Below, in pieces: positions 456 through 60,200 of a stretch of DNA of 64,000 bases. The stretch covers positions 24,552,001-24,616,000 of the forward strand of contig NC_086108.1 of assembly GCF_963921235.1 (NCBI RefSeq), in the 5' to 3' direction. How positions within the stretch are numbered: position 1 is the first letter of the stretch; the number at the start of each line of letters is the position of its first letter. A model generated the notes under the pieces. That model had not been told where the DNA came from. It saw nothing but the letters and a program-made list of their open reading frames with translations, and did no database searches. The translations under genes and the position numbers were made by a program. This stretch comes from Mobula hypostoma. Its lineage: Eukaryota.

Positions 456-1352
456 GACTGTTTACCCTTTTCCATAGATTCTACCTGGCCTGAGGTTCTC
501 CAGCATTTTATAAAGGATGCTTCTCATTTTTCTTCTTCACTTCTCCTCACCTTTCCTTTAGCTTTCTTTCCTTCATTTATATTTCCTTTCTTATCTTGCC
601 TTTTGAAAGCCCTTTCTTGTCCTTTCCTCTTTCCATCTGTTGCATGCTGTTCCCACCACTAATCCTCCACCTTCTGCACCCGAGAGCTGTCTCTGGTCTC
701 AAGAAAGTCGTCTGCCGTATCTTCACAGCAGGTTAATACTTGTGGCAATTCAATCAGCCATTTCTGCCATGTATTCCTTTCCCTGTTTATCTAACTAGGT
801 GAAAACAAAAGGTCCTCATATATGATTCAAAGAGGAGCAGATGATATAAGCCTGCAGTATTAACATATATTTATCCCATAATCAGATTTATGTTAACTTA
901 TCATGTTTGTCATGTTTATAATGCACTGTACTGCCAGTCCCAAAGCTAATTTACACTCTGTATGTACACCTACGATAATAAACTTAAATAGCAAGCTTCA
1001 TTAGTGTTATAGAACTACATTTGTACTAAATTTGTTCCAAAAATACTTCACTGGTTGCAAAACACTTTGAGATAAAAATAATGAAATCAAGTGTATGAAT
1101 TCAATCTATTTGTTCTTTTATCCTAAAATTTAACTTCCACACCTGGAGTTAGAGATATTAATGTGTACTTCTTAATAATATGCCTTACAATCAAGTCTAA
1201 ATTAGTCTCCTGGCAGAGTCTCCATTTTGTGTGTAAACTGAACTGTAACAGCTTGTACACAACAGGAATTCTGCAGATGCTGGAAATTCAAGCAACACAC
1301 ATCGAAGTTGCTGGTGACGCAGCAGACCAGGCAGCATCTCTAGGAAGAGGTG

Positions 1353-1390
1353 CAGTCGACGTTTCAGGCCGAGACCCTTCGTCAGGACTA
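1353..1390 (-). ncRNA. Minimal type I hammerhead ribozyme motif (PLE)
   Basis: Minus strand reads TAGTC-CTGACGA-AGGGTCTCGGCCT-GAAA-CG-TC-GACTG: CUGANGA and GAAA core, helix I AGTC/GACT, palindromic ACGT in place of helix III. Confidence 0.8.
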
Positions 1391-2379
1391 ACTGAAGGAA
1401 GAGTGAGTAAGAGATTTGAAAGTTGGAGGGGGAGGGGGAGATCCAATATGATAGGAGAAAACAGGAGGGGGAGGGATGGAGCCAAGAGCTGGACAGGTGA
1501 TTGGCAAAAGGGATACGAGAGGATCATGAGACAGGAGGTCCGGGAAGAAAGACGGGGGGGGGGGGGGAACCCAGAGGATGGCAAGGGGTATATTCAGAGG
1601 GACAGAGGGAGAAAAAGGAGAGTGAGGGAAAGAATGTGTGTATAAAAATAAGTAACAGATGGGGTACGAGGGGGAGGTGGGGCATTAGCGGAAGTTAGAG
1701 AAGTCGATGTTCATGCCACCAGGTTGGAGGCTACCCAGACGGAATATAAGGTGTCGTTCCTCCAACCTGAGTGTGGCTTCATCTTTACAGTAGAGGAGGC
1801 CGTGGATAGACATGTCAGGATGGGAATGAGATGTGGAATTAAAATCTGTGGCCACTGGGAGACCGCTTTGCTGAACATCTACGCTCTGTCCGCCAGAGAA
1901 AGTAGGATCTCCCAGTGGCCACACATTTTAATTCCACATCCCATTCCCATTCTGACATGTCTATCCACGGCCTCCTCTACTGTAAAGATGAAGCCACACT
2001 CAGGTTGGAGGAACGACACCTTATATTCCGTCTGGGTAGCCTCCAACCTGATGGCATGAACATCGACTTCTCTAACTTCCGCTAATGCCCCACCTCCCCC
2101 CGTACCCCATCTGTTACTTATTTTTATACACACATTTTTTCTCTCACTCTCCCTTTTCTCCTTCTGTCCCTCTGAATATACCCCTTGCCCATCCTCTGGG
2201 TTCCCCCCGCCCCTTGTCTTTCTTCCCGGACCTCCTGTCCCATGATCCTCTCGTATCCCCTTTTGCCTATCACCTGTCGAGCTCTTGGCTCCATCCCTCC
2301 CCTTCCTGTTTTCTCCTATCATTTTGGATCTCCCCTTCCCACTCCCACTTTCAAGTCGCTTACTCACTCTTCCTTCAGT

Positions 2380-2417
2380 TAGTCCTGACGAAGGGTCTTG
2401 GCCTGAAACGTCGACTG
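2380..2417 (+). ncRNA. Minimal type I hammerhead ribozyme motif (PLE)
   Basis: TAGTC-CTGACGA-AGGGTCTTGGCCT-GAAA-CGTC^GACTG; predicted cleavage after GUC, between 2412 and 2413. Confidence 0.8.
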
Positions 2418-3719
2418 CGCCTCTTCCTAGAGATGCTGCCTGGCCTGCTGCGTTCACCAGCAACTTTGATGTGTGTTGCAACAGCTTGTATAGCTTGTCC
2501 CCTTCGAGTTCAAACTGGAACAAACATAATCAAATGTATAACATACAAAATTACATAAAGCTTTCAATCAGCTTTAGATCAAAAGCACAGATTCTGTCTG
2601 TTTTGAATTGCCACAGAGATGTAACAAGACCTTCTCAAAAGAAGCAAGACAAATCTATTCATGCCTGATTTCAAGTTCCTTTGTGTTGTTTCACTAACTT
2701 CAGAACAAAGAACATAGAAATTTTTAGCACAATAAAGGTAATTTTCTCCTTTTGCTGAATTCTACAAGATGACAGCACTCTTGACATGTAAAAAGTGGAT
2801 TCTCTCCAAAATCTCTTTATACTTTTAGCATGATTTTTAAGAAAAACTATTTTACCACAGGAAATATTACAAGAAAGGGAACATTGCTACGATTCCAATA
2901 TAATTTTTTGTTTGGGATGTGTGCATCACTAACAAGGGTTTATTGTTGAACTTTGTTATACTTGAAAAGATGGTGGTGGGCTGTCTTCCTCAACTGCCAT
3001 CATCCTTGTGTGTTGGAAGGTGATCTAAGAGGGGGATTACCACTCAGTCCCACTGCTCTGGATAGAAACCACACAGAGGGCAGAACAGAGAGGGTTTTCC
3101 TCCTGTTAAGGAAATTAGTAAATCCATTGGAGTCTTAAAATATTCTGGTAGGATATTGGTCATTATAAGACAATTCTAAAAAATCCCAGATTATTTAATC
3201 CTACAGCTGCCTTGGTGGTATTTGATTTACATCTGTACAGAGTTAGGATGTGTACTGTTGGCAAGAAACCACTGAACTTGCATCGTAACCATGTATATCT
3301 GTAAAGCACAGTTTCTGTGAGTAGTTTGATGAAACCGTCAGACACAATACCCCATGAGCAGTTCACACTGCAGATGAAAATAATATTTCCTTTGCCTTCC
3401 ATGGGAAATCTAGTAAGTGAGAAGAAACTAGTTTTGTTCTACGTTAACTTCTGCTCTGTTCTTAAATCACTGCTGTATCATCAACAAACCTCCAAGTCTC
3501 CTAAGATCTGATCTTAAGCATTTAACAGGTCGGATAATTTATTTAAACCAGTCAATGTTATAAGTTTATCAAGTTGTAATGCGGAGAATTGTTCTATATT
3601 AGGGTATCTGAATCTTCAGTTTGAAATAAAACATCACAAAGGTTCCATTTTAATTTATTTTGAAAAGATAATATAGTGCACAGGCAGATTTTACATTTTT
3701 CATTTATGTTTATACATTC

Positions 3720-11640: not shown

Positions 11641-12185
11641 ATATTTTAAGAAGATAGTAGCATGTAAATAGTTTGAAAATACATCGACAATCGGCCAAAC
11701 TTGCTCCAACTCCCATAAATGCAAAGTAAAAAGCAATACAGACAAAATAACAATAAACTCACTATTTTCTTCACCCTCTGAATATCAGCCACAAGGAAAA
11801 TTAAAAATTGACTCACTGGCAATAAACCTTGGAGTAATTGCTGAGAATCAATTGAAGCAAATGCTTACGTATCTCCCTCCATCAAAAGTGTTGAGTGAAT
11901 CGGATTTAAAAACATCCTTTTCTAACATCAATTCCCAATGAATTTTCTCTGACATGTGTATAATGGAGTTTTCACCTTTATACATAAAAACATTGCTTTT
12001 AAATTGGAACCTAAATGTTTTATGGAAAGGTTCACATTCTCACATATTTCAAATCACACCATTGGAGTAATTGCAGAAATCCTTTGACACAAGTACTCAG
12101 TGAAACTGATTCTGTAATTGATGAGCAACAACATAAAAGTCGCTGGTGAACGCAGCAGGCCAGGCAGCACCTCTAGGAAGAGGTA

Positions 12186-12223
12186 CAGCCGACGTTTCGG
12201 GCCGAGATGCTTCGTCAGGACTA
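12186..12223 (-). ncRNA. Hammerhead motif, helix II damaged
   Basis: TAGTC-CTGACGA-AGCATCTCGGCCC-GAAACGTC-GGCTG on the minus strand. Confidence 0.6.
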
Positions 12224-12499
12224 ACTGAAAGAAGTGCTAGTAAGAGATTTGAAAGTTGGAGGGGGAGGGATGAAGCTAAGAGCTGGACAGGTGATTGGCA
12301 AAAGGGATATGAGAGGATCATGGGACAGGAGGCCTAGGGAGAAAGAAAAGGTGGAGGGGGGGAAAAACCCAGAGGATGGGCAAGGGGTATAGTGAGAGGG
12401 ACAGAAGGAGAAAATGGAGAGAGAGAAAAAGAATGTGTGTATATAAATAAATATCGGATGGGGTACGAGGGGGAGGTGGGGCATTAGTGGAAGCGGAAG

Positions 12500-14140
12500 G
12501 CTCTTCAACTTTTCGACCACATTTTGACTCAGACTCGCTATCACAGCCGTATATCCTTTATTGGAATGTGTCTCCGCCGCAACTTACTCCAGTTGGCTTT
12601 AGGATTCATTTTCGAGCCTCTCAATTTGGACCTTCTGAGGATCCCAGGTACTCACATTTCATTGACTCTGCCTCTCATCGCTTCTCCCATCAAGCTCTGA
12701 AGGTGACACTCTCCGCCATGAGGAGGTATTTGGTGTCCCTATCCCAGACCCTCCCACACTTTCAGGACACTTTCTTCGCCGTCTGTAATGGACCTGCTCG
12801 TTATTTCATCCTCTGTCGGATCAATGCCAGCAATCGCCGTATTTTTGACTTTGTCATGCTAGGCAAGGATCACAAGAACTTACATCTGCAGACACCAGAG
12901 CCTGCTGGCCCCAATGCTAGCAGGCATGAACTTCAGATTGCGGCCCCTGCCATTGGTCTCGCCAGCTCCAACACCAAAAGGCATATTCAAAACCCGGACT
13001 CCAGCAACAACCATGACACCTTCAAAGCGATTGCGCAACCACCAACTGCGATTCCAGCATTGAAGTCCAGGCCGGGTATTTATGTGCTGCTATTGTTACT
13101 CCCGTCTCCCCTTCCCCCACCACCACTCTGCAACCCGTATCCCTCAGATCCCACCATCAGCTTCTGGGCCCTCAGAGGCTCCATCTTCCTCTCACCCCAA
13201 ACCTCGCCACTCCACTGACACCCCCAGCCTCCCCCCTCCCCCCTCTGATCCCACTTCTCATCCGTGCCGGGTCCTTACCATCCCCTCCAACCTTCAACTG
13301 ACTGAGGCAGAGCGCTCTGTCCTCAGTAAGGGCCTCACCTTTGTCCCCCTTCACCCACACCTCAGCGAGTTCCGCGTTTGCCATGATGCTGAACTCTTCT
13401 TCCGCTGGCTCCGTCTCCAAGCCTACTTCTTCAGCAAGGACTCTCCCACCCCCACCGATGACCCCTTCTCCCGTCTTCAACCCTCTTCCTCTTCATGGAC
13501 ACCCCGCTCTGGTCTTCTGCCTGCTCTGGATCTCTTTATTGCTAACTGCCAATGGGACATCAACCATCCCAACTTCACCGCACCTTGTTCCCATTCCAAC
13601 TTCACTCTTTCCGAACAGTCTGCTCTCCACTCCCTCCGCACTAATCCTAACATTACTATAAAACCCGCCGATAAGGGGGATGCTGTTGTAGTCTGGCGCA
13701 CTGACCTCTACCTCGATCATGACACCACTAAGGAGCACCAGGCCATTGTCTCCCACACCATCACCGACTTTATCCACTCAGGGGATCTCCCATCCACTGC
13801 TACCAACCTTATAGTTCCCACACCACGCACTTCCCGTTTCTACCTCCTACCCAAGATCCACAAACCTGTCTGTTCTGGTAGACCCATTCTCTCAGCTTGC
13901 TCCTGCCACACCAAACTCACTTCTGCATACGTCGACACAGTTTTATCCCCCCTTGTTCAATCCCTTCCTACCTATGTTCGTGATACTTCTCACGCTCTGA
14001 AACTTTTCGATGATTTTAACTTCCCTGGCCCCCACCGCTTTATTTTAACCGTGGATGTCCAGTCCCTATAAACTTCCATCCCCCATCAGGAAAGGCTCAA
14101 AGTTCTCCGCCTCTTTTTGGATTCCAGACCTAACCAGTTC
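12500..14140 (+). pseudogene. PLE polyprotein fragment (N-terminal region + RT fingers/palm start), frameshifted and truncated
   Basis: ORFs 12487-13218 and 13082-14071: SVLSKGLTFVP, ELFFRWLRLQAYF, ALHSLRTNPNITIKPADKG. Confidence 0.88.
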
Positions 14141-14224
14141 CCTCCCCCTCCTGTCTTCTCCTATCGTTTCAGATCTACCCCTCCCCTTCCCACTTTCAAA
14201 TCTCTTACTAGCTCTTCTTTCAGT

Positions 14225-14262
14225 TAGTCCTGACGAAGGGTCTCGGCCTGAAAAGTCGACTG
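14225..14262 (+). ncRNA. Hammerhead motif, palindromic loop mutated (ACGT to AAGT)
   Basis: TAGTC-CTGACGA-AGGGTCTCGGCCT-GAAAAGTC-GACTG. Confidence 0.65.
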
Positions 14263-14570
14263 TACCTCTTCCTAGAAATGCTGCCTGGCCTGCTGCGTTC
14301 ACCAGCAACTTTTATGTGTGTTGCTTGAAATTCCAGCATCTGCAGATTTCCTCGTGTTTGCACTGTAATTGATAAGTTACTTTCTATGGTCTGTCACAGA
14401 TACTATCACTCTTTTTATTTCCCAAGTTTAAAACAGTTCTCGAAACAAGGCTATTTACATGCTGCAATCTTCTTCTTGAGAAGCCTTAATTTCAAACCGG
14501 CTTGCTTCCGCTCTGGTATTGTGCACTGTTGGTTGCTGATGAGGCCAATGTGGATTCTGCAGAGTTTTGT

Positions 14571-51530: not shown

Positions 51531-51660
51531 TGTTGTCCTCACTGAGAAGAATGTAATATCCGTGTATTATATTTATATCTTAATTGAAGATAGCACCACC
51601 GAACAACACAACCAAAGGTGACCTCCTTCAGATAGTTTACAAAACTACTATTATTTCCTT

Positions 51661-51852
51661 CAAAGTTGCTGGTGAACGCAGCAGGCCAGGCAGCATCTCT
51701 AGGAAGAGGTACAGTCGATGTTTCAGGCCGAGACCCTTCCCTGAAACGTCGACTGTACCTCTTCCTAGAGATGCTGCCTGGCCTGCTGCGTTCACCAGCA
51801 ACTTTGAGGTGTGTTGCTTGAATTTCCAGCACCTGCAGAATTCCTCGTGTTC
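51661..51852. mobile_element. 192-bp PLE hairpin insertion
   Basis: 13-bp TSD CTATTATTTCCTT (51648-51660 and 51853-51865); 67-bp inverted arms at 51661-51727 and 51740-51806; PLE tail on the right. Confidence 0.93.
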
Positions 51853-53663
51853 CTATTATTTCCTTACTACTTCTTTCAAATATGTTTCTGTTACAGTTAG
51901 ATTCTGTGATACATAGAAACATAGAAACATAGAAAATAGGTGCAGGAGTAGGCCATTCGGCCCTTCAAGCCTGCACCGCCATTTATTATGATCATGGCTG
52001 ATCATCCAACTCAGAACCCCGCCCCAGCCTTCCCTCCATACCCCCTGACCCCTGTAGCCACAAGGGCCATATCTAACTCCCTCTTAAATATAGCCAATGA
52101 ACTGGCCTCAACTGTTTCCTGTGGCAGAGAATTCCACAGATTCACCACTCTCTGTGTGAAGAAGTTTTTCCTAATCTCGGTCCTAAAAGGCTTCCCCTCT
52201 ATCCTCAAACTGTGGCTCCTCGTTCTGGACTTCCCCAACATCGGGAACAATCTTCCTGCATCTAGCCTGTCCAATCCCTTTAGGATCTTATACATTTCAA
52301 TCAGATCCCCCCTCAATCTTCTAAATTCCAACGAGTACAAGCCCAGTTCATCCAGTCTTTCTTCATATGAAAGTCCTGCCATCCCAGGAATCAATCTGGT
52401 GAACCTTCTTTGTACACACTCTATGGCAAGGAGGTCTTTCCTCAGATTAGGGGACCAAAACTGCACACAATACTCCAGGTGTGGTCGCACCAAGGCCTTG
52501 TACAACTGCAGTAGTACCTCCCTGCTCCTGTACTCGAATTCTCTCGCTATAAATGCCAGCATACCATTCGCCTTTTTCACCGCCTGCTGTACCTGCATGC
52601 CCACTTTCAATGACTGGTGTATAATGACACCCAGGTCTCGTTGCACCTCCCCTTTTCCTAATCGGCCACCATTCAGATAATAATCTGTTTTCCTATTTTT
52701 GCCACCAAAGTGGATAACTTCACATTTATCCACATTAAATTGCATCTGCCATGAATTTGCCCACTCACCCAACCTATCCAAGTCACCCTGCATCCTCTTA
52801 GCATCCTCCACACAGCTAACACTGCCACCCAGCTTCGTGTCATCCGCAAACTTGGAGATGCTGCATTTAATTCCCTCATCCAAGTCATTAATATATATTG
52901 TAAACAACTGGGGTCCCAGCACTGAGCCTTGCGGTACCCCACTAGTCACCGCCTGCCATTCTGAAAAGGTCCCGTTTATTCCCACTCTTTGCTTCCTGTC
53001 TGCTAACCAATTCTCCACCCACACCAATACCTTACCCCCAATACCGTGTGCTTTAAGTTTACACACTAATCTCCTGTGTGGGACCTTGTCAAAAGCCTTT
53101 TGAAAATCCAAATATACCACATCCACTGGTTCTCCCCTATCCACTCTACTAGTTACATCCTCAAAAAATTCCATGAAATTCGTCAGACATGATTTTCCTT
53201 TCACAAATCCATGCTGACTTTGTCCGATCATTTCACCGCTTTCCAAATGTGCTGTTATCACATCCTTGATAACTGACTCCAGCAGTTTCCCCACCACCGA
53301 CGTTAGGCTAACCGGTCTATAATTCCCGGTTTCTCTCTTCCTCCTTTTTTAAAAAGTGGAGTTACATTAGCCACCCTCCAATCCTCAGGAACTAGTCCAG
53401 AATCTAACGAGTTTTGAAAAATTATCACTAATGCATCCACTATTTCTTGGGCTACTTCCTTAAGCACTCTAGGATGCAGACCATCTGGCCCTGGGGATTT
53501 ATCTGCCTTCAATCCCTTCAATTTACCTAACACCACCTCCCTACTAACATGTATTTCACTCAGTTTCTCCATCTCACTGGACCCTCTGTCCCCTACTATT
53601 TCTGGAAGATTATTTATGTCCTCCTTTGTGAAGACAGAACCAAAGTAATTATTCAATTGGTCT

Positions 53664-53803
53664 CAAACAACAGGAATTCTGCAAATGCTGGAAATTCAAG
53701 CAACATACATCAAAGTTGCTGGTGAACGCAGCAGGCCAAGCAGCATCTATAGGAAGAGGTGCAGTCGACGTTTCAGGCCGAGACCCTTCGTCAGGACTAA
53801 CTA
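53664..53803 (-). mobile_element. 140-bp PLE mini-element (hammerhead + 3' tail)
   Basis: 13-bp TSD ATTCAATTGGTCT at 53651-53663 and 53804-53816; sequence closely matches 1258-1393. Confidence 0.95.
53762..53799 (-). ncRNA. Minimal type I hammerhead ribozyme motif, intact
   Basis: TAGTC-CTGACGA-AGGGTCTCGGCCT-GAAACGTC^GACTG. Confidence 0.82.
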
Positions 53804-54965
53804 ATTCAATTGGTCTGCCATGTTCTTGCTCCCCATAATCAATTCACCTGTTTCTGTCTGTAGGGGACCTACATTTGTCTTTACCAGTCTTTTCCTTTTT
53901 ACATATCTATAAAAGCTTTTACAGTCCGTTTTTATGTTCCCTGCCAGTTTTCTCTCATAGTCTTTTTTCCCCTTCCTAATTAAGCCCTTTGTCCTCCTCT
54001 GCTGAACTCTGAATTTCTCCCAGTCCTCAGGTGAGCCACTTTCTCTGGCTAATTTGTATGCTTCTTCTTTGGAATTGATACTATCCCTAATTTCTCTTGT
54101 CAGCCACGGGTGCACTACCTTCCTTGATTTATTCTTTTGCCAAACTGGGATGAACAATTGTTGTAGTTCATCCATGCAACCTTTAAATGCTTGCCATTGC
54201 ATATCCACCGTCAATCCTTTAAGTGTCATTTGCCAGTCTATCTTAGCTAATTCACGTCTCATACCTTCAAAGTTACCCCTCTTTAAGTTCAGAACCTTTG
54301 TTTCTGAATTAACTATGTCACTCTCCATCTTAATGAAGAATTCCACCATATTATGGTCACTCTTACCCAAGGGGCCTCTCACGACAAGATCGCTAATTAA
54401 CCCTTCCTCATTGCTCAAAACCCAGTCCAGAATAGCCTGCTCTCTAGTTGGTTCCTCGACATGTTGGTTCAAAAAACCACCCCGCATACATTCCAAGAAA
54501 TCCTCTTCCTCAGCACCTTTACCAATTTGGTTCACCCAATCTACATGTAGATTGAAGTCACCCATTATAACTGCTGTTCCTTTATTGCACACATTTCTAA
54601 TTTCCTGTTTAATACCATCTCCGACCTCACTACTACTGTTAGGTGGCCTGTACACAACTCCCACCAGCGTCTTCTGCCCCTTAGTGTTACGCAGCTCTAC
54701 CCATATCGATTCCACATCTTCCTGGCTTATGTCCTTCCTTTCTATTGCGTTAATCTCTCCTTTAACCAGCAACGCCACCCCACCTCCCCTTCCTTCAAGT
54801 CTATCCCTCCTGAATATTGAATATCCCTGAACGTTGAGCTCCCATCCCTGGTCACCCTGGAGCCATGTCTCTGTGATCCCAACTATATCATAATCATTAA
54901 TAACAATCTGCACTTTCAATTCATCCACCTTATTACGAATGCTCCGTGCATTGACACACAAAGCC

Positions 54966-55753: not shown

Positions 55754-55904
55754 GAAAATTGATAAGCCGGGGGGACTTCCAGGTCATCAAGGGAATGGCG
55801 GCGTAAGGAAAAGGTCTCTCGACAAAAAAGAAGGTAAACTGCCCCAAAATCGAATTTAGACAAATACTTAATATTGCATAACTATATTAATAAAAGGGGC
55901 AAGG

Positions 55905-56891
55905 ATGATGTCTAAGAACAAGAATAAAAAGTCCGCTTCGAAGGCTGATAAACATAAAGAGACGCAGCAAGGCAACAGGCCTAGCTCCCCCACAGCAAGC
56001 CAGGATGGAGATAATGAGGGGGAATCGGTGACTCTGTCTTTGATTCTCGGAGAGATTCGCAAGTTCCGACAAGATAACAGCAAACAGCTGGAAGATATTA
56101 AAGGAGAAATAGTAAAAACTAACTCGCGGATAGATGAAGCTGAAGCGAGGATTGTTGGAATTGAAGAGAAGCTACAAAATGCCGAGGAAGTGATAGCAGA
56201 AATGCTGAAGCTACAAGACCAACTCCAGTGGAAACTAATAGATCAAGAAGGCCGCTCGAGAAGGGAAAATGTGAGGATCTACGGAGTTCCCGAAGGAACC
56301 GAAGGTAAACCCGGATTGATGATTCCCTTTGTGGAGAAGCTGCTTAGAGAGAACCTTGATATACCGGCCGCAAAAGACCTACAGATAGAAAGGGCTCACC
56401 GCGCGTTGGCACCACAGCCTCCGGCAGGCGCCCAGCCCAGATCGATTCTGGTCAGATTTCTCAGTTACAGAACGAAGGAAGAGGTGCTTAAAAGAGCATG
56501 GCAAAAGAAAGGTTTCGTGTGGAACAACTGTAAAATCAGTTTAGACCACGACTACGCACCGGGGATTCTTGCCAGACGGAAGGAATATACGGAAACACGG
56601 AGAGTCCTGAAGGAAAACAACATCAGATTCCAGACCCTGTATCCAGCTCGGCTGAGAGTCTTTTACGACGAAGGGACAAAAACTTACGCTACGGTGGAGG
56701 AGGCAACGTCGGACCTGGTGGACCGGGGACTACCTATTAAAGTTATCACCCAACCGGAGTCGCTACTGGAGAGAATTCGGCAGAAGTCGTGGCAGTTAGT
56801 GGGGCAAGGACGCTCCACTCGAAACAGAGTGTCAAACTACAAGGAAAAGCTACAAATATTCAGACGCGAATGTACAGAGAATACAGATTAA
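55905..56891 (+). CDS. L1 ORF1p (coiled coil + RRM + CTD, Transposase_22-like), intact, 328 aa
   Basis: EGRSRRENVRIYGVPE, IERAHR, PRSILVRF, LYPARLRV motifs. Confidence 0.93.
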   Translation: MMSKNKNKKSASKADKHKETQQGNRPSSPTASQDGDNEGESVTLSLILGEIRKFRQDNSKQLEDIKGEIVKTNSRIDEAEARIVGIEEKLQNAEEVIAEMLKLQDQLQWKLIDQEGRSRRENVRIYGVPEGTEGKPGLMIPFVEKLLRENLDIPAAKDLQIERAHRALAPQPPAGAQPRSILVRFLSYRTKEEVLKRAWQKKGFVWNNCKISLDHDYAPGILARRKEYTETRRVLKENNIRFQTLYPARLRVFYDEGTKTYATVEEATSDLVDRGLPIKVITQPESLLERIRQKSWQLVGQGRSTRNRVSNYKEKLQIFRRECTENTD

Positions 56892-57253
56892 TTAAGAGAA
56901 ATGACTGAAAAGAGTAAATCGGACTTAAAAGTAAAATGAAAACTGGTAATTGAAAATAATCTAGGCGGAATAACTTGAATGATAGCAATATGGTCGAGAC
57001 ATAAATAGGAGAAAATTCTCTATGATTATTCAAACTGCTGAGGGCCCTCTAACACAGGGTGAAGATAGAGTTTATCCCTCTGAACTGAGACGGGTCGGTG
57101 CTCAGGCCTCACTGTGGGAAGTCGGGGAAAATTTTCAAATGTTATACGTTCAGAAATGTCTAGGGTGTGGTTATATGTCTTGGTTTACTGTTGAGAAGGG
57201 ATTGCTTACTGTTTGGTTAGAAAAGGAGAGTGCTTTTTTTCTACTAGAGAAAA

Positions 57254-60200
57254 ATGCAAACTGAATTGGTAAAAATAATTTCCTATAATGTTAATGGGGT
57301 TTTGAATCCAATTAAAAGAAATAAGATTATGTCTAAATTGAAAAAAGAGAGGGCACAAATAGCTTTCCTCCAGGAAACACATATGAGCCAATCTGAACAT
57401 GGAAAATTAAAAAGAATGGGCTTTAAGCATGTATTTTATTCATCATATAAATTGAGTCACAAAAGAGGGGTAGCTAGTTTAATATCAAGTACTCTTAATT
57501 ATGAACATATTTCAGAGACTAGAGACAAAGAAGGACGGTTTGTAAAAATCACAGGAAGAATAGAAGGTACAGAAATAACATTGCTGAATGTTTATGCTCC
57601 TCCAGGTAGTGAATGGTCATTTTATAGACACATTTTTGACCTAATGGTCAGTTCTCGAGGGGTAGTAATTTGTGGAGGGGATTTTAATATTAGATTAAAT
57701 CCTATATTACATTCTTCAAGAATAGTTACTCAGAATAAACCTCTGACTCGGAAAGTGAATTCATTGATGGAGGAGTTGGGAATTATAGATGTCTGGAGGG
57801 AATTACACCCTACTAGTAAAGATTATACATATTACTCTTTCCCTCATTCAGCCTATTCAAGGATAGACTATTTCTTTATCTTTAATACAGATAGACTCAG
57901 GATAAAAAACTGTAATATTGCAACAATTGATCTGTCGGATCATAGCCCAGTCTCTATGCCTCTAATCCTGGAAAGGAAAATGAGGAAAACACTATGGAGG
58001 CTAAACTCACATATACTTAATAACCCAAAAGTAATGGAGAGATTAAGGGGAGAAATCAAAGAATATCTACACCTTAATGACACGGGAGAAACATCACCAG
58101 TGATTTTATGGGATACATTGAAAGCTGTACTGAGAGGGAAAATTATTTCCATTACTACTCACATGAAAAAAATCAATGCACAAAAATTAGCAGACCTTCA
58201 AGGAAAATTAAAACAACTTCAAGTTGGATATAGCAACAAAAGTAATTCAAATCGAAAACAGGAAATTAGGAAATTGCAAAGTGAAATTGATGATATTTAT
58301 ACGTTGGAAACTCAAAGAAATTTTCTTTACCTGAGACAAAAGAATTATGAAGTAGGAGGTAAATCAGCTAGATTATTAGCATATAAATTACGAAAACAAC
58401 AAGCAGACAATACAATTCATAAAATAAAGAATCCAAAGACAAAGCTTGTGGAGAGTACAATAGGGAAAATTCAAGAGAGTTTTGAAACGTATTATTGAGA
58501 GCTGTACTCCCAACCCCGGGCCCCCAATGAGCCCTATATAGACAGTGTATTGAATTTTTTAGATCTACCTAAACTTACAGATTTACAAAATGAAAGTTTA
58601 TTAGAACCAGTAACTGTCAAAGAACTGAACGTGGCCATCTCTAGGTTAAAGGCTGGAAAGTCCCCGGGTTCTGATGGGTTTATCTCAGAGTGGTACAAGT
58701 CCCTGAAGACACAGTTAGCCCCATTACTACTTAACACCTTTAATTGGATCTTGCAGAGAGGAGAAACTCCACCTTCCTGGAGAGAAGTGATTATTTCAGT
58801 TATTCCTAAAGAGGGTAAAGATAAACTAGAATGTGGCAATTATCGGCCAATTAGTGTTCTTAATTTAGATTACAAACTATTTACATCTATATTAGCGTGC
58901 AGATTGGAAAAGCTTTTACCTGGCCTAATCCATTTAGACCAGACTGGATTTATTCAACAAAGACAAACACAGGACAACATAAGGAGAACTTTGCACATAT
59001 TAGAACAGGTTAATAAGAACGAGACAGAGACAATGGTAGTAGGATTGGACGCTGAGAAAGCTTTTGATTCGGTTAGTTGGGCATTCCTATACAGAGTGTT
59101 AGGAAGTTTCGGCTTTCAAGAAAGGTTTATTAAAGTAATTCAGACTCTGTATGACAGCCCAACAGCCTGAATTAAGATAAATGGGGACCTCTCTGACTCC
59201 TTCATTTTAGAGAGAGGCACTAGACAGGGATGCCCAATTTCTCCTCTCCTTTTTGCGCTATATATTGAACCACTTGCCCAACTAATAAGACAGAGCGAAA
59301 TCGTAAAAGGTATCAAGGTGGCAGGGATTGAACAGAAAGTGGCGTTATTCGCAGATGATGTTTTGGTCTATCTGAGTGAACCAGAAAAATCATTTATAGG
59401 ATTGTTTACACTGTTGGATGTCTTTGGGAAAATATCAGGTTATAAAATAAATGTAAAGAAAACGCAGGTTATGTCCCTAAATTATACACCATCCAAAAAA
59501 TTGCAGGATACATACGATCTTAAGTGGGAAGCTAAATCATTAAAATATTTAGGAATAACCCTGCCGAAGATCTTTCAACACTGTCACAGGTAAATTATGG
59601 GCCATTAATCTCAGAGATAAAAGCAGATATGCATAGATGGAATCTTATCCCCTTTTTAAGTTTAAATTCAAGGATAAATACTATAAAAATGAATATTCTT
59701 CCTCGGTTATTATATCTTTTCCGTACTTTACCAGTGGAGGTGGATGATAATCAATTCAGGGAATGGGACAAATGGATTTCCCGCTTCATTTGGCAAGGAA
59801 GGAAACCTAGAATTCGATATAACACTTTACAGTTAGGGAAGGAAAGAGGAGGTATGGTTCTTCCTTGCCTGAGAAATTATTTTTATGCCTCACAGATAAC
59901 CCCTCTGTTATATTGGTGTAATAGGGAATATAAGGCTAGATGGAAGGAAATAGAATTTGGATTAGTTGACAGTTTTCCTCTTCAGGCCTCAATAGCTGAC
60001 AAAGGATTGATGGCCCAGTTGGAAAAATTTAATAATGCTTGGATAAATCTTACATTAAAAGTATGGCAGAAGGTGGTTAATTCATGTGGAATTAATAACA
60101 TGCTAAAACTCTTTAGATGGTGTGCATATGATACCGAATTCCTTCCCAACAGAGGAGATAAAAGATTTGAGCTATGGATAAAGAAAGGTCTTACAACCTA

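Follow-up and report, generated by a model that had tools for sequence, protein, structure and literature searches.

A recent 140-bp copy of the 3′ end of a Penelope-like element in Mobula hypostoma and the clustering of 5′ ends of its family before a predicted hammerhead

Penelope-like elements (PLEs) form partial tandems, may carry an adjacent inverted copy that is truncated at its 5′ end, and have a tail of 30-40 bp at one end only (PMC8557442, partial text). The pseudo-long terminal repeat (pseudo-LTR) of Penelope contains a start site (PMC2377424 and PMC8557442, partial texts), which in Drosophila virilis lies 46 bp before an intron of 75 bp (PMC2377424, partial text). A minimal hammerhead of the PLE type needs no helix III (PMC4209133, partial text). 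Work on an Anolis element has shown that both DNA strands of the target are cut and extended, that two internal start sites of reverse transcription bound the tail, and that uncut, unprocessed RNA is the main template of the reverse transcriptase (RT) in vitro (PMC11167929). Monomers of the retrozymes are possibly non-mobile offspring, according to the available part of bioRxiv 10.64898/2026.07.22.740005. Here we describe a short insertion from the genome of Mobula hypostoma, within a window of 64,000 nt (the whole stretch of DNA analysed: contig NC_086108.1, positions 24,552,001 to 24,616,000 of the forward strand; coordinates below are those of the window). The insertion corresponds to the 3′ end of a PLE and includes a predicted hammerhead, and the 5′ ends of its relatives across the genome cluster in a narrow zone at the 5′ edge of the hammerhead motif.

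The insert, its parent element and the hammerhead motif

The initial annotation of the window had described an insertion of 140 bp within a perfect 13-bp target-site duplication, carrying the 3′ end of a PLE with an uncleaved hammerhead motif. The sequence agrees on all of these points, and the features are as follows.

53664..53803, minus strand: insert, 140 bp, made of one extra T (53803) and the last 139 nt of the element; the site is empty in 11/11 paralogs
53651..53663, no strand: left copy of the target-site duplication, ATTCAATTGGTCT
53804..53816, no strand: right copy of the target-site duplication, ATTCAATTGGTCT
53762..53799, minus strand: minimal hammerhead motif, with helix I UAGUC/GACUG; assigned from the sequence, a regular expression, and the pairs of the centroid fold for helices I and II
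53664..53699, minus strand: optional 36-nt tail (TTGAATTTCC...TTGTTTG) between two alternative 3′ ends

Paralogs of the host repeat, a long interspersed element (LINE), were found by searching the genome with the left flank of the insert. In all 11 of the paralogs fetched (97-99% identical), the 13-mer occurs once, uninterrupted and directly joined to GCCATGT, which fixes the boundaries of both insert and duplication exactly. Read on the minus strand, the sequence of the insert opens with T + AGTTAGTCCTGACGA... (in a longer reading, T + AGTTAGTCCTGACGAAGGGTCTCGGCCTGAAACGTCGAC...) and ends with ...CCTGTTGTTTG. The leading T belongs to neither the target nor the element, and long copies have a C at this position. 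Three other copies in the genome match the insert at 100% identity over 138-139 nt; by this measure the insert is recent, as had been proposed.

In the longer copies of the window, the upstream sequence ends with ...CTCTTCCTTC and AGTTAG follows; the motif TCAGTT is found, as annotated, at 2375-2380 and 14220-14225. In longer copies elsewhere in the genome, the sequence upstream is a C/T-rich 3′ untranslated region (UTR) and, beyond it, the end of an open reading frame (ORF) of the GIY-YIG type. One locus, L140, contains a head-to-tail tandem with a period of 3,516 nt and 99.5% identity, at the junction of which the tail, ...CCTGTTGTTTG, is directly joined to the head, CGTTTAAATTCAC.... A frame of 679 amino acids in L140 matched RVT_1 (E = 3.6e-5, 24 bits, below the Pfam cutoff of 29.6), and after one frameshift a frame of 173 amino acids matched GIY-YIG with 23.5 bits (above the cutoff of 22.6). 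The insert thus equals the last 139 nt of an element of ~3.5 kb with RT and GIY-YIG frames, that is, the hammerhead motif and about 100 nt. The RT with its C-terminal GIY-YIG, split over two frames by the single frameshift, together with the tandem unit, therefore points to the architecture of an endonuclease-bearing (EN+) PLE, and on its sequence the parent is such an element. In agreement with this assignment, head-bearing copies have variable pseudo-LTRs upstream, inverted and 5′-truncated neighbors occur together with a one-sided tail in the 30-40-bp range, and the insert itself combines homology to the 3′ end with a flanking target duplication.

The family is abundant. A 29-mer of the tail with CATCTG had 36,952 exact matches in the 3.48-Gb genome, the insert's own tail variant (CATTTG) had 189, and a 28-mer of the head had 907 at no more than one mismatch. 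Sequencing runs under two organism labels (runs X1-X8) contained 66-83% of the words sampled from the 3′ 540 nt of the element, and near-identical copies are thus present under more than one organism label.

The core of the hammerhead motif consists of CUGACGA (53794-53788), GAAAC (53774-53770) and GUC (53769-53767), in type-I order. Helix I has 5 bp, helix II is short (about 3 bp in the predicted fold) and helix III is essentially absent. The regular expression for the core matched the insert and 96 of the 134 sampled copies that reach the motif. A search of the whole window against the Rfam hammerhead families returned none at the gathering threshold, and none matched 53640-53830 at E <= 10; we assign the hammerhead by its sequence motif and refer to it as a predicted ribozyme. 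Folds were predicted for the 240-nt 3′ region, for the insert and for the complementary DNA of the zone described below, and none was more stable than those of shuffled sequences (z values of -0.36, -0.13 and 0.03 among the three). The cut is predicted between 53767 and 53766. The insert spans this site, and its template was therefore uncut, in line with the preference for unprocessed RNA seen in vitro (PMC11167929).

Distribution of 5′ ends in the family

We surveyed 190 copies, picked in genome order by an exact match to the tail 29-mer alone and not by their length, a choice that is blind to the 5′ end for copies longer than about 36 nt. Sample A comprised the first 100 of the 189 matches to the insert's tail variant, and sample B the first 90 listed for the common variant. 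Each copy was aligned to the natural full unit, with the A of AGTTAG as position 0. The 125 copies ending within the last ~210 nt were considered short, and the expectation for even ends was computed over 174 positions. The insert's top 30 genome matches, which are biased to copies of at least 133 nt, were left out of the histogram.

Under these conditions, the 5′ end of the forward arm fell between -16 and +13 in 36 of the 100 copies of sample A and in 32 of the 90 copies of sample B (~36% overall). This zone of 30 nt, hereinafter the hot zone, sits at the 5′ edge of the hammerhead, around TCAGTT. Among the short copies 68/125 ended in it, against 21.6 expected if the ends were even (binomial p = 5.7e-21), and an earlier mapping against another reference copy agreed, with 36/100 ends in the zone. 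The initial annotation held that the insert was not a random 5′ truncation, and in this it was correct: with 68 short copies in 30 of 174 positions and two samples that agree, the 5′ end of the insert is not the result of random truncation.

The initiator consensus is TCA(+1)GTY, and 5′ ends had been predicted to peak at the A of TCAGTT. When the ends of the 190 copies were plotted relative to this A, they were clustered, yet there was no peak at the A; ends mapped by BLAST to the A +/- 1 numbered 3, against 6.8 expected if they were even within the zone. Ends bounded by the target duplication were read only in simple copies whose repeat was 8 bp or longer (39 of the 84 simple copies; one listed row, L093, proved to be an inverted copy). 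Of the short copies bounded in this way, 17/27 started in the zone, four of them at -14 to -8, two at the A, ten at +5 to +9 and one at +11 or +12. The mode at +5 to +9 corresponds to GTCCTGACGA, and several starts are ambiguous by 1-3 nt of microhomology. The copies that begin exactly at the A are the insert in the window (with its extra T), L059 (with an extra G) and L244. Seven of the 29 head-bearing copies had an upstream pseudo-LTR that started in the zone.

Starts next to the predicted hammerhead cut were found in only 3 of the 190 copies. These copies (L099, L121 and L188) begin at ACTGCACC, one base past the first base of the predicted cleavage product, and are possibly rare copies of cut RNA, a weak hint.

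Counts of exact words gave 41,058 matches in the genome for a 30-mer through the zone and 40,630 for a 30-mer inside the hammerhead, which at first sight speaks against a drop in copies at the zone. In the sample the same two words had 63 and 63 exact matches, and 88 and 133 matches at <= 3 mismatches. The hammerhead 30-mer is richer in CpG sites and the sample counts are equal only when exact, and the comparison of exact words is therefore uninformative. Contigs of X1, X2, X5 and X6 on L140:1900-2900, the kind of which is only guessed, cannot show starts; their summed word depth, with a rise of ~5-fold at the hammerhead edge and a fall of ~1000-fold in the head, was therefore not taken as evidence.

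An abutting inverted arm was present in 79 of the 125 short copies. In 68 of these 79 the inverted arm failed to reach the full 3′ end by about 36 nt, and the tail is thus one-sided. The inner end of the inverted arm lay within the hot zone in 40/79, and 24/79 had a symmetric junction in the zone, as would be left by snap-back on the CCTTC...GAAGG and GTC..GAC palindromes. In the asymmetric pairs, whether one arm ended in the zone was independent of whether the other did (odds ratio 0.86, p = 1). Head-bearing copies were often composite, with a first part running from the zone through the tail to about position 150-185 of the head and a second part running from a variable point to ...GTTGC. 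The composites are bounded by duplications (L148, L150 and L161), their junctions are variable and rich in microhomology, and they use a second 3′ end that lies 36 nt inside the element, with ...GTTGC beside the duplication. Inverted arms, an optional tail of 36 nt and internal starts of reverse transcription all match the published biology of Penelope.

Two further observations concern the ends and junctions of individual copies. The 3′ ends of L116 and L208 read TTGTTTG followed by CGTTT(T), that is, by 5-6 bases of the head of the element; these junctions reach into the head, and the template therefore extended past the tail and copying began internally. In L155 (G000:C1:52910860-52913887) the inverted and forward arms are separated by a filler, CCTAACCTAACC, with the look of a telomere-like or slipped repeat.

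Explanations for the hot zone

Taken as a whole, we consider that the insert is probably a dead-on-arrival copy truncated at the 5′ side, the 5′ end of which likely marks either the start of the copied RNA or the point of RT release, just before the hammerhead. Target-primed reverse transcription would have started at the tail, at an internal start site as found in vitro for the Anolis element (PMC11167929), and would then have crossed the uncut hammerhead. Synthesis would have ended by run-off at the 5′ end of the RNA, within the zone, and one untemplated T may have been added at the 5′ end of the insert. The simplest candidate for that RNA would be the leader of transcripts of the element initiated in the pseudo-LTR.

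As to the zone itself, we tentatively favor RNA 5′ ends over a stop of the enzyme, because of the untemplated bases at junctions, the snap-backs, the jumps to a second template in duplication-bounded composites with a segment ending in the zone (L148, L155 and L161), and the 7/29 upstream pseudo-LTRs that start there. Internal starts of reverse transcription combined with a leader initiated in the pseudo-LTR would give exactly such copies of 105-140 nt. A more specific proposal, which we hold with less confidence, is that RNA of the family truly has its 5′ end at the 5′ edge of the hammerhead, as either a start in the pseudo-LTR or a processing site, and that a 'hammerhead + tail' leader of ~105-140 nt is itself the template. 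If so, about a third of the copies of the family, likely tens of thousands by a rough extrapolation, would be run-off copies of the leader, and the hammerhead would mark the start of the transposition RNA and not merely a cutting site.

Several observations weigh against RNA 5′ ends as the origin of the zone. The sequences that would place the 5′ end of a transcript in the zone are DNA copies. Their ends cover about 30 nt and form sub-clusters (-14 to -8, 0, and +5 to +9), a wider spread than that of a single focused start, and in 9 of the 13 full-length copies the pseudo-LTR reaches beyond the zone, so that many templates read through. In D. virilis, the start site of Penelope and the hammerhead downstream of it are separated by about 120 nt, and the intron lies in this interval (PMC2377424 and PMC4209133, partial texts). 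Moreover, the zone overlaps the palindrome CCTTC...GAAGG, which could itself favor template switching, and the independence of the two arms fits a chance of stopping per molecule as well as it fits a mixed pool of RNAs.

The last of these points would be accommodated if the RT, copying long RNAs, halted, folded back or switched template at the 5′ edge of the hammerhead, because of a local palindrome or of a protein bound to the region of the hammerhead and tail. The zone does contain the CCTTC/GAAGG and GTC/GAC palindromes, around which the 24/79 symmetric inverted junctions are arranged. The share of ends in the zone is also similar in the 3′ context (68 of the 143 copies reaching it) and in the context of the upstream pseudo-LTR (7/20), and the Anolis protein assists folding of the hammerhead and so binds nearby (PMC11167929). 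An enzyme arriving from the 3′ side, however, should stall on entering the structure and not past it; the predicted folds, as given above, do not exceed shuffles in stability, and simple copies with clean duplications, at 17/27, cluster in the zone too. We regard an enzyme stop as the less likely of the two main readings, and prefer RNA 5′ ends as the origin of the zone.

The explanation first proposed placed a focused initiator in the pseudo-LTR, at the A of TCAGTT, which would produce a transcript of ~140 nt that the PLE enzyme would mobilize as a unit resembling a short interspersed element (SINE) or a retrozyme. Promoters in pseudo-LTRs are known (PMC2377424, partial text), the motif fits the consensus, three copies (the insert, L059 and L244) begin exactly at the A, and the zone is strongly enriched for 5′ ends. 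Within the zone, however, the A is not the peak, with 2/17 of the duplication-bounded ends as compared with 10/17 at +5 to +9, and the BLAST-mapped ends there fall below the even expectation. Furthermore, a promoter upstream would be missing from a copy of 140 nt, the insert consists of one unit and not of a tandem, and the mini copies lack variants specific to a lineage (see below). We therefore consider a focused initiator improbable.

Marginally less probable still is that TCAG/TT (the slash marks the junction) is a 3′ splice site and not an initiator, and that the ends nearby reflect spliced or partly spliced templates. The sequence CTTACTCAC-TCTTCCTTCAG/TT resembles a branch site, a pyrimidine tract and an acceptor, with branch-like CTTAC/CTCAC motifs just before helix I, and its position at helix I is exactly that at which the Penelope intron ends in D. 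virilis (PMC4209133, partial text). A 310-nt unit found at two loci, in which position 177 of the head is joined to TTAGTCC and the missing 3.2 kb has the form GTATCC...CAG, would also be in line with splicing. Nevertheless, this unit represents one ancestral junction only, and the junctions of another array and of all the composites are not GT-AG and show microhomology. The donor is weak, no duplication-bounded copy starts exactly at +2, and among the contig joints listed for L140:1900-2900 (X1, X2, X5 and X6) there is none at the TCAG acceptor with GT..AG ends. Finally, plain random 5′ truncation, with an end near TCAGTT by coincidence, would suit the heavy 5′ truncation for which PLEs are known (PMC8557442, partial text) and the occurrence of ends at many positions, and is very improbable given the excess of short copies in the zone in both samples.

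By itself the insert is routine genome debris. The pattern across the family is of moderate interest and bears on the role of the hammerhead in PLEs and on where the template RNA begins: 5′ ends that pile up before the predicted ribozyme, and not at its cut site, speak against models in which the RNA is simply cut and then copied.

Mini copies, tandem arrays, the surrounding window and known systems

Mini and long copies were compared over the 66 nt that separate the hammerhead from the tail word, after dropping copies with >12 mismatches (3/68 mini and 1/65 long). No column differed between the 65 mini and the 64 long copies (smallest uncorrected p = 0.086), and the mean number of mismatches per 66 nt relative to the natural reference was 3.62 vs 3.64 and 3.23 vs 3.39, mini vs long. 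Shared variants and equal divergence indicate that minis and long copies have their sources and their times of origin in common. On these sequences, then, the autonomous element yields the minis as by-products, and they do not form a SINE-like lineage; a mini copy is not known to be able to replicate by itself. The mobile SINE- or retrozyme-like unit of the initial annotation finds no support here: each mini is a single unit, the minis show no diagnostic changes of a self-propagating lineage, and the insert, which is one colinear unit and not a series of tandem hammerhead units, consists of hammerhead and tail only, with no promoter head of its own.

Tandem arrays of short units do occur elsewhere in the genome. 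L274 (G000:C2:157815200-157818800, element on the minus strand) contains 4.1 tandem units of 310 nt as one insertion with a 13-bp duplication. The unit consists of the hammerhead, the tail and 177 nt of the head. At its junction ...CAGCCAT, which ends at head position 177, continues directly with TTAGTCC..., and the 3.2 kb absent from the unit starts with GTATCC and ends with CAG. The identical junction is found at a second locus with other flanks, L280 (G000:C50:58410981-58414011). The loss of the ORFs in this unit looks as if they had been spliced out in one ancestral event, which we mention as a lead only. L275 (G000:C2:122541800-122544000) is a short tandem with a period of about 265 nt, made of the pseudo-LTR and 108 nt of the head; it comes with a separate 13-bp duplication, TTAGCATTAAGAT, and its junction lacks the GT-AG form. 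The 310-nt arrays show that retrozyme-like units can arise from the pseudo-LTR and the head by loss of the ORFs.

Within the window there are eight further matches to the insert. The copies described in full, and the host of the insert, are:

1259..2479, no strand: head-to-head inverted pair of longer copies (GIY-YIG end, 3′ UTR and hammerhead), the right arm without the tail
14139..14360, plus strand: copy of 222 bp, with TCAGTT at 14220-14225
12124..12493, minus strand: older copy, about 79% identical, without the tail
51660..51851, no strand: fold-back mini insertion, with an inverted arm at 51660-51739, a forward arm at 51740-51851 and the junction within the hammerhead
52011..54964, minus strand: ORF2 of the host LINE (apurinic/apyrimidinic-type endonuclease and RT), interrupted by the insert

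The pair at 1259-2479 forms a near-palindrome of 1.2 kb; 1292-2479 is 92.6% self-complementary, and the arms reach the end of the GIY-YIG coding region. The host LINE ORF2 and the insert are on the same strand. When the insert and one of the duplicates were removed by script, an open frame of 502 amino acids with a match to Exo_endo_phos was restored, which is followed by one frameshift and then by an RVT_1 frame of 445 amino acids. The host had been described as a nearly intact, young ORF2 of the CR1 type. The restored frames are those of a LINE ORF2; for the clade, a look-up returned only automatic 'jockey-like' names. Two long open frames of another LINE-like element adjoin the host LINE, both on the plus strand: 55872-56891 (339 amino acids) and 57248-58498 (416 amino acids, endonuclease-like in sequence).

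The insert can be set against four kinds of described system. Like SINEs with a borrowed LINE tail, it is short and shares a 3′ end that is recognized by an autonomous enzyme; unlike them, it has no head of the tRNA, 5S or 7SL type and does not belong to a separate lineage. With the non-LTR retrozymes (bioRxiv 10.64898/2026.07.22.740005, partial text) it shares sequence derived from a PLE pseudo-LTR and one hammerhead per unit, but those units, as far as the available text describes them, are tandem or permuted, whereas the insert is a single colinear 3′ end. The minimal hammerheads of PLE pseudo-LTRs, in the part of PMC4209133 available, resemble the motif of the insert in their type-I layout, helix I of 5 bp, CUGANGA/GAAA/GUC core and near absence of helix III, and the palindromic ACGU fits the dimer type described for them; most of the motifs there are single and probably belong to truncated PLEs, as in the insert. 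The motif of the insert differs in that it has no match to an Rfam model and a helix II of only about 3 bp in the predicted fold. The closest likeness is to truncated insertions of EN+ PLEs of the Penelope, Poseidon and Neptune type (PMC8557442, partial text; PMC11167929), although a sharp, family-wide pile-up of 5′ ends at the 5′ edge of the hammerhead is not described in PMC11167929 or in the available part of PMC8557442. With these insertions the family shares the RT with its C-terminal GIY-YIG, units in tandem or as pseudo-LTRs, heavy 5′ truncation, abutting inverted arms and a one-sided tail, as well as target duplications of 8-15 bp, two internal start sites of reverse transcription at the 3′ side and a hammerhead about 100 nt from the 3′ end.

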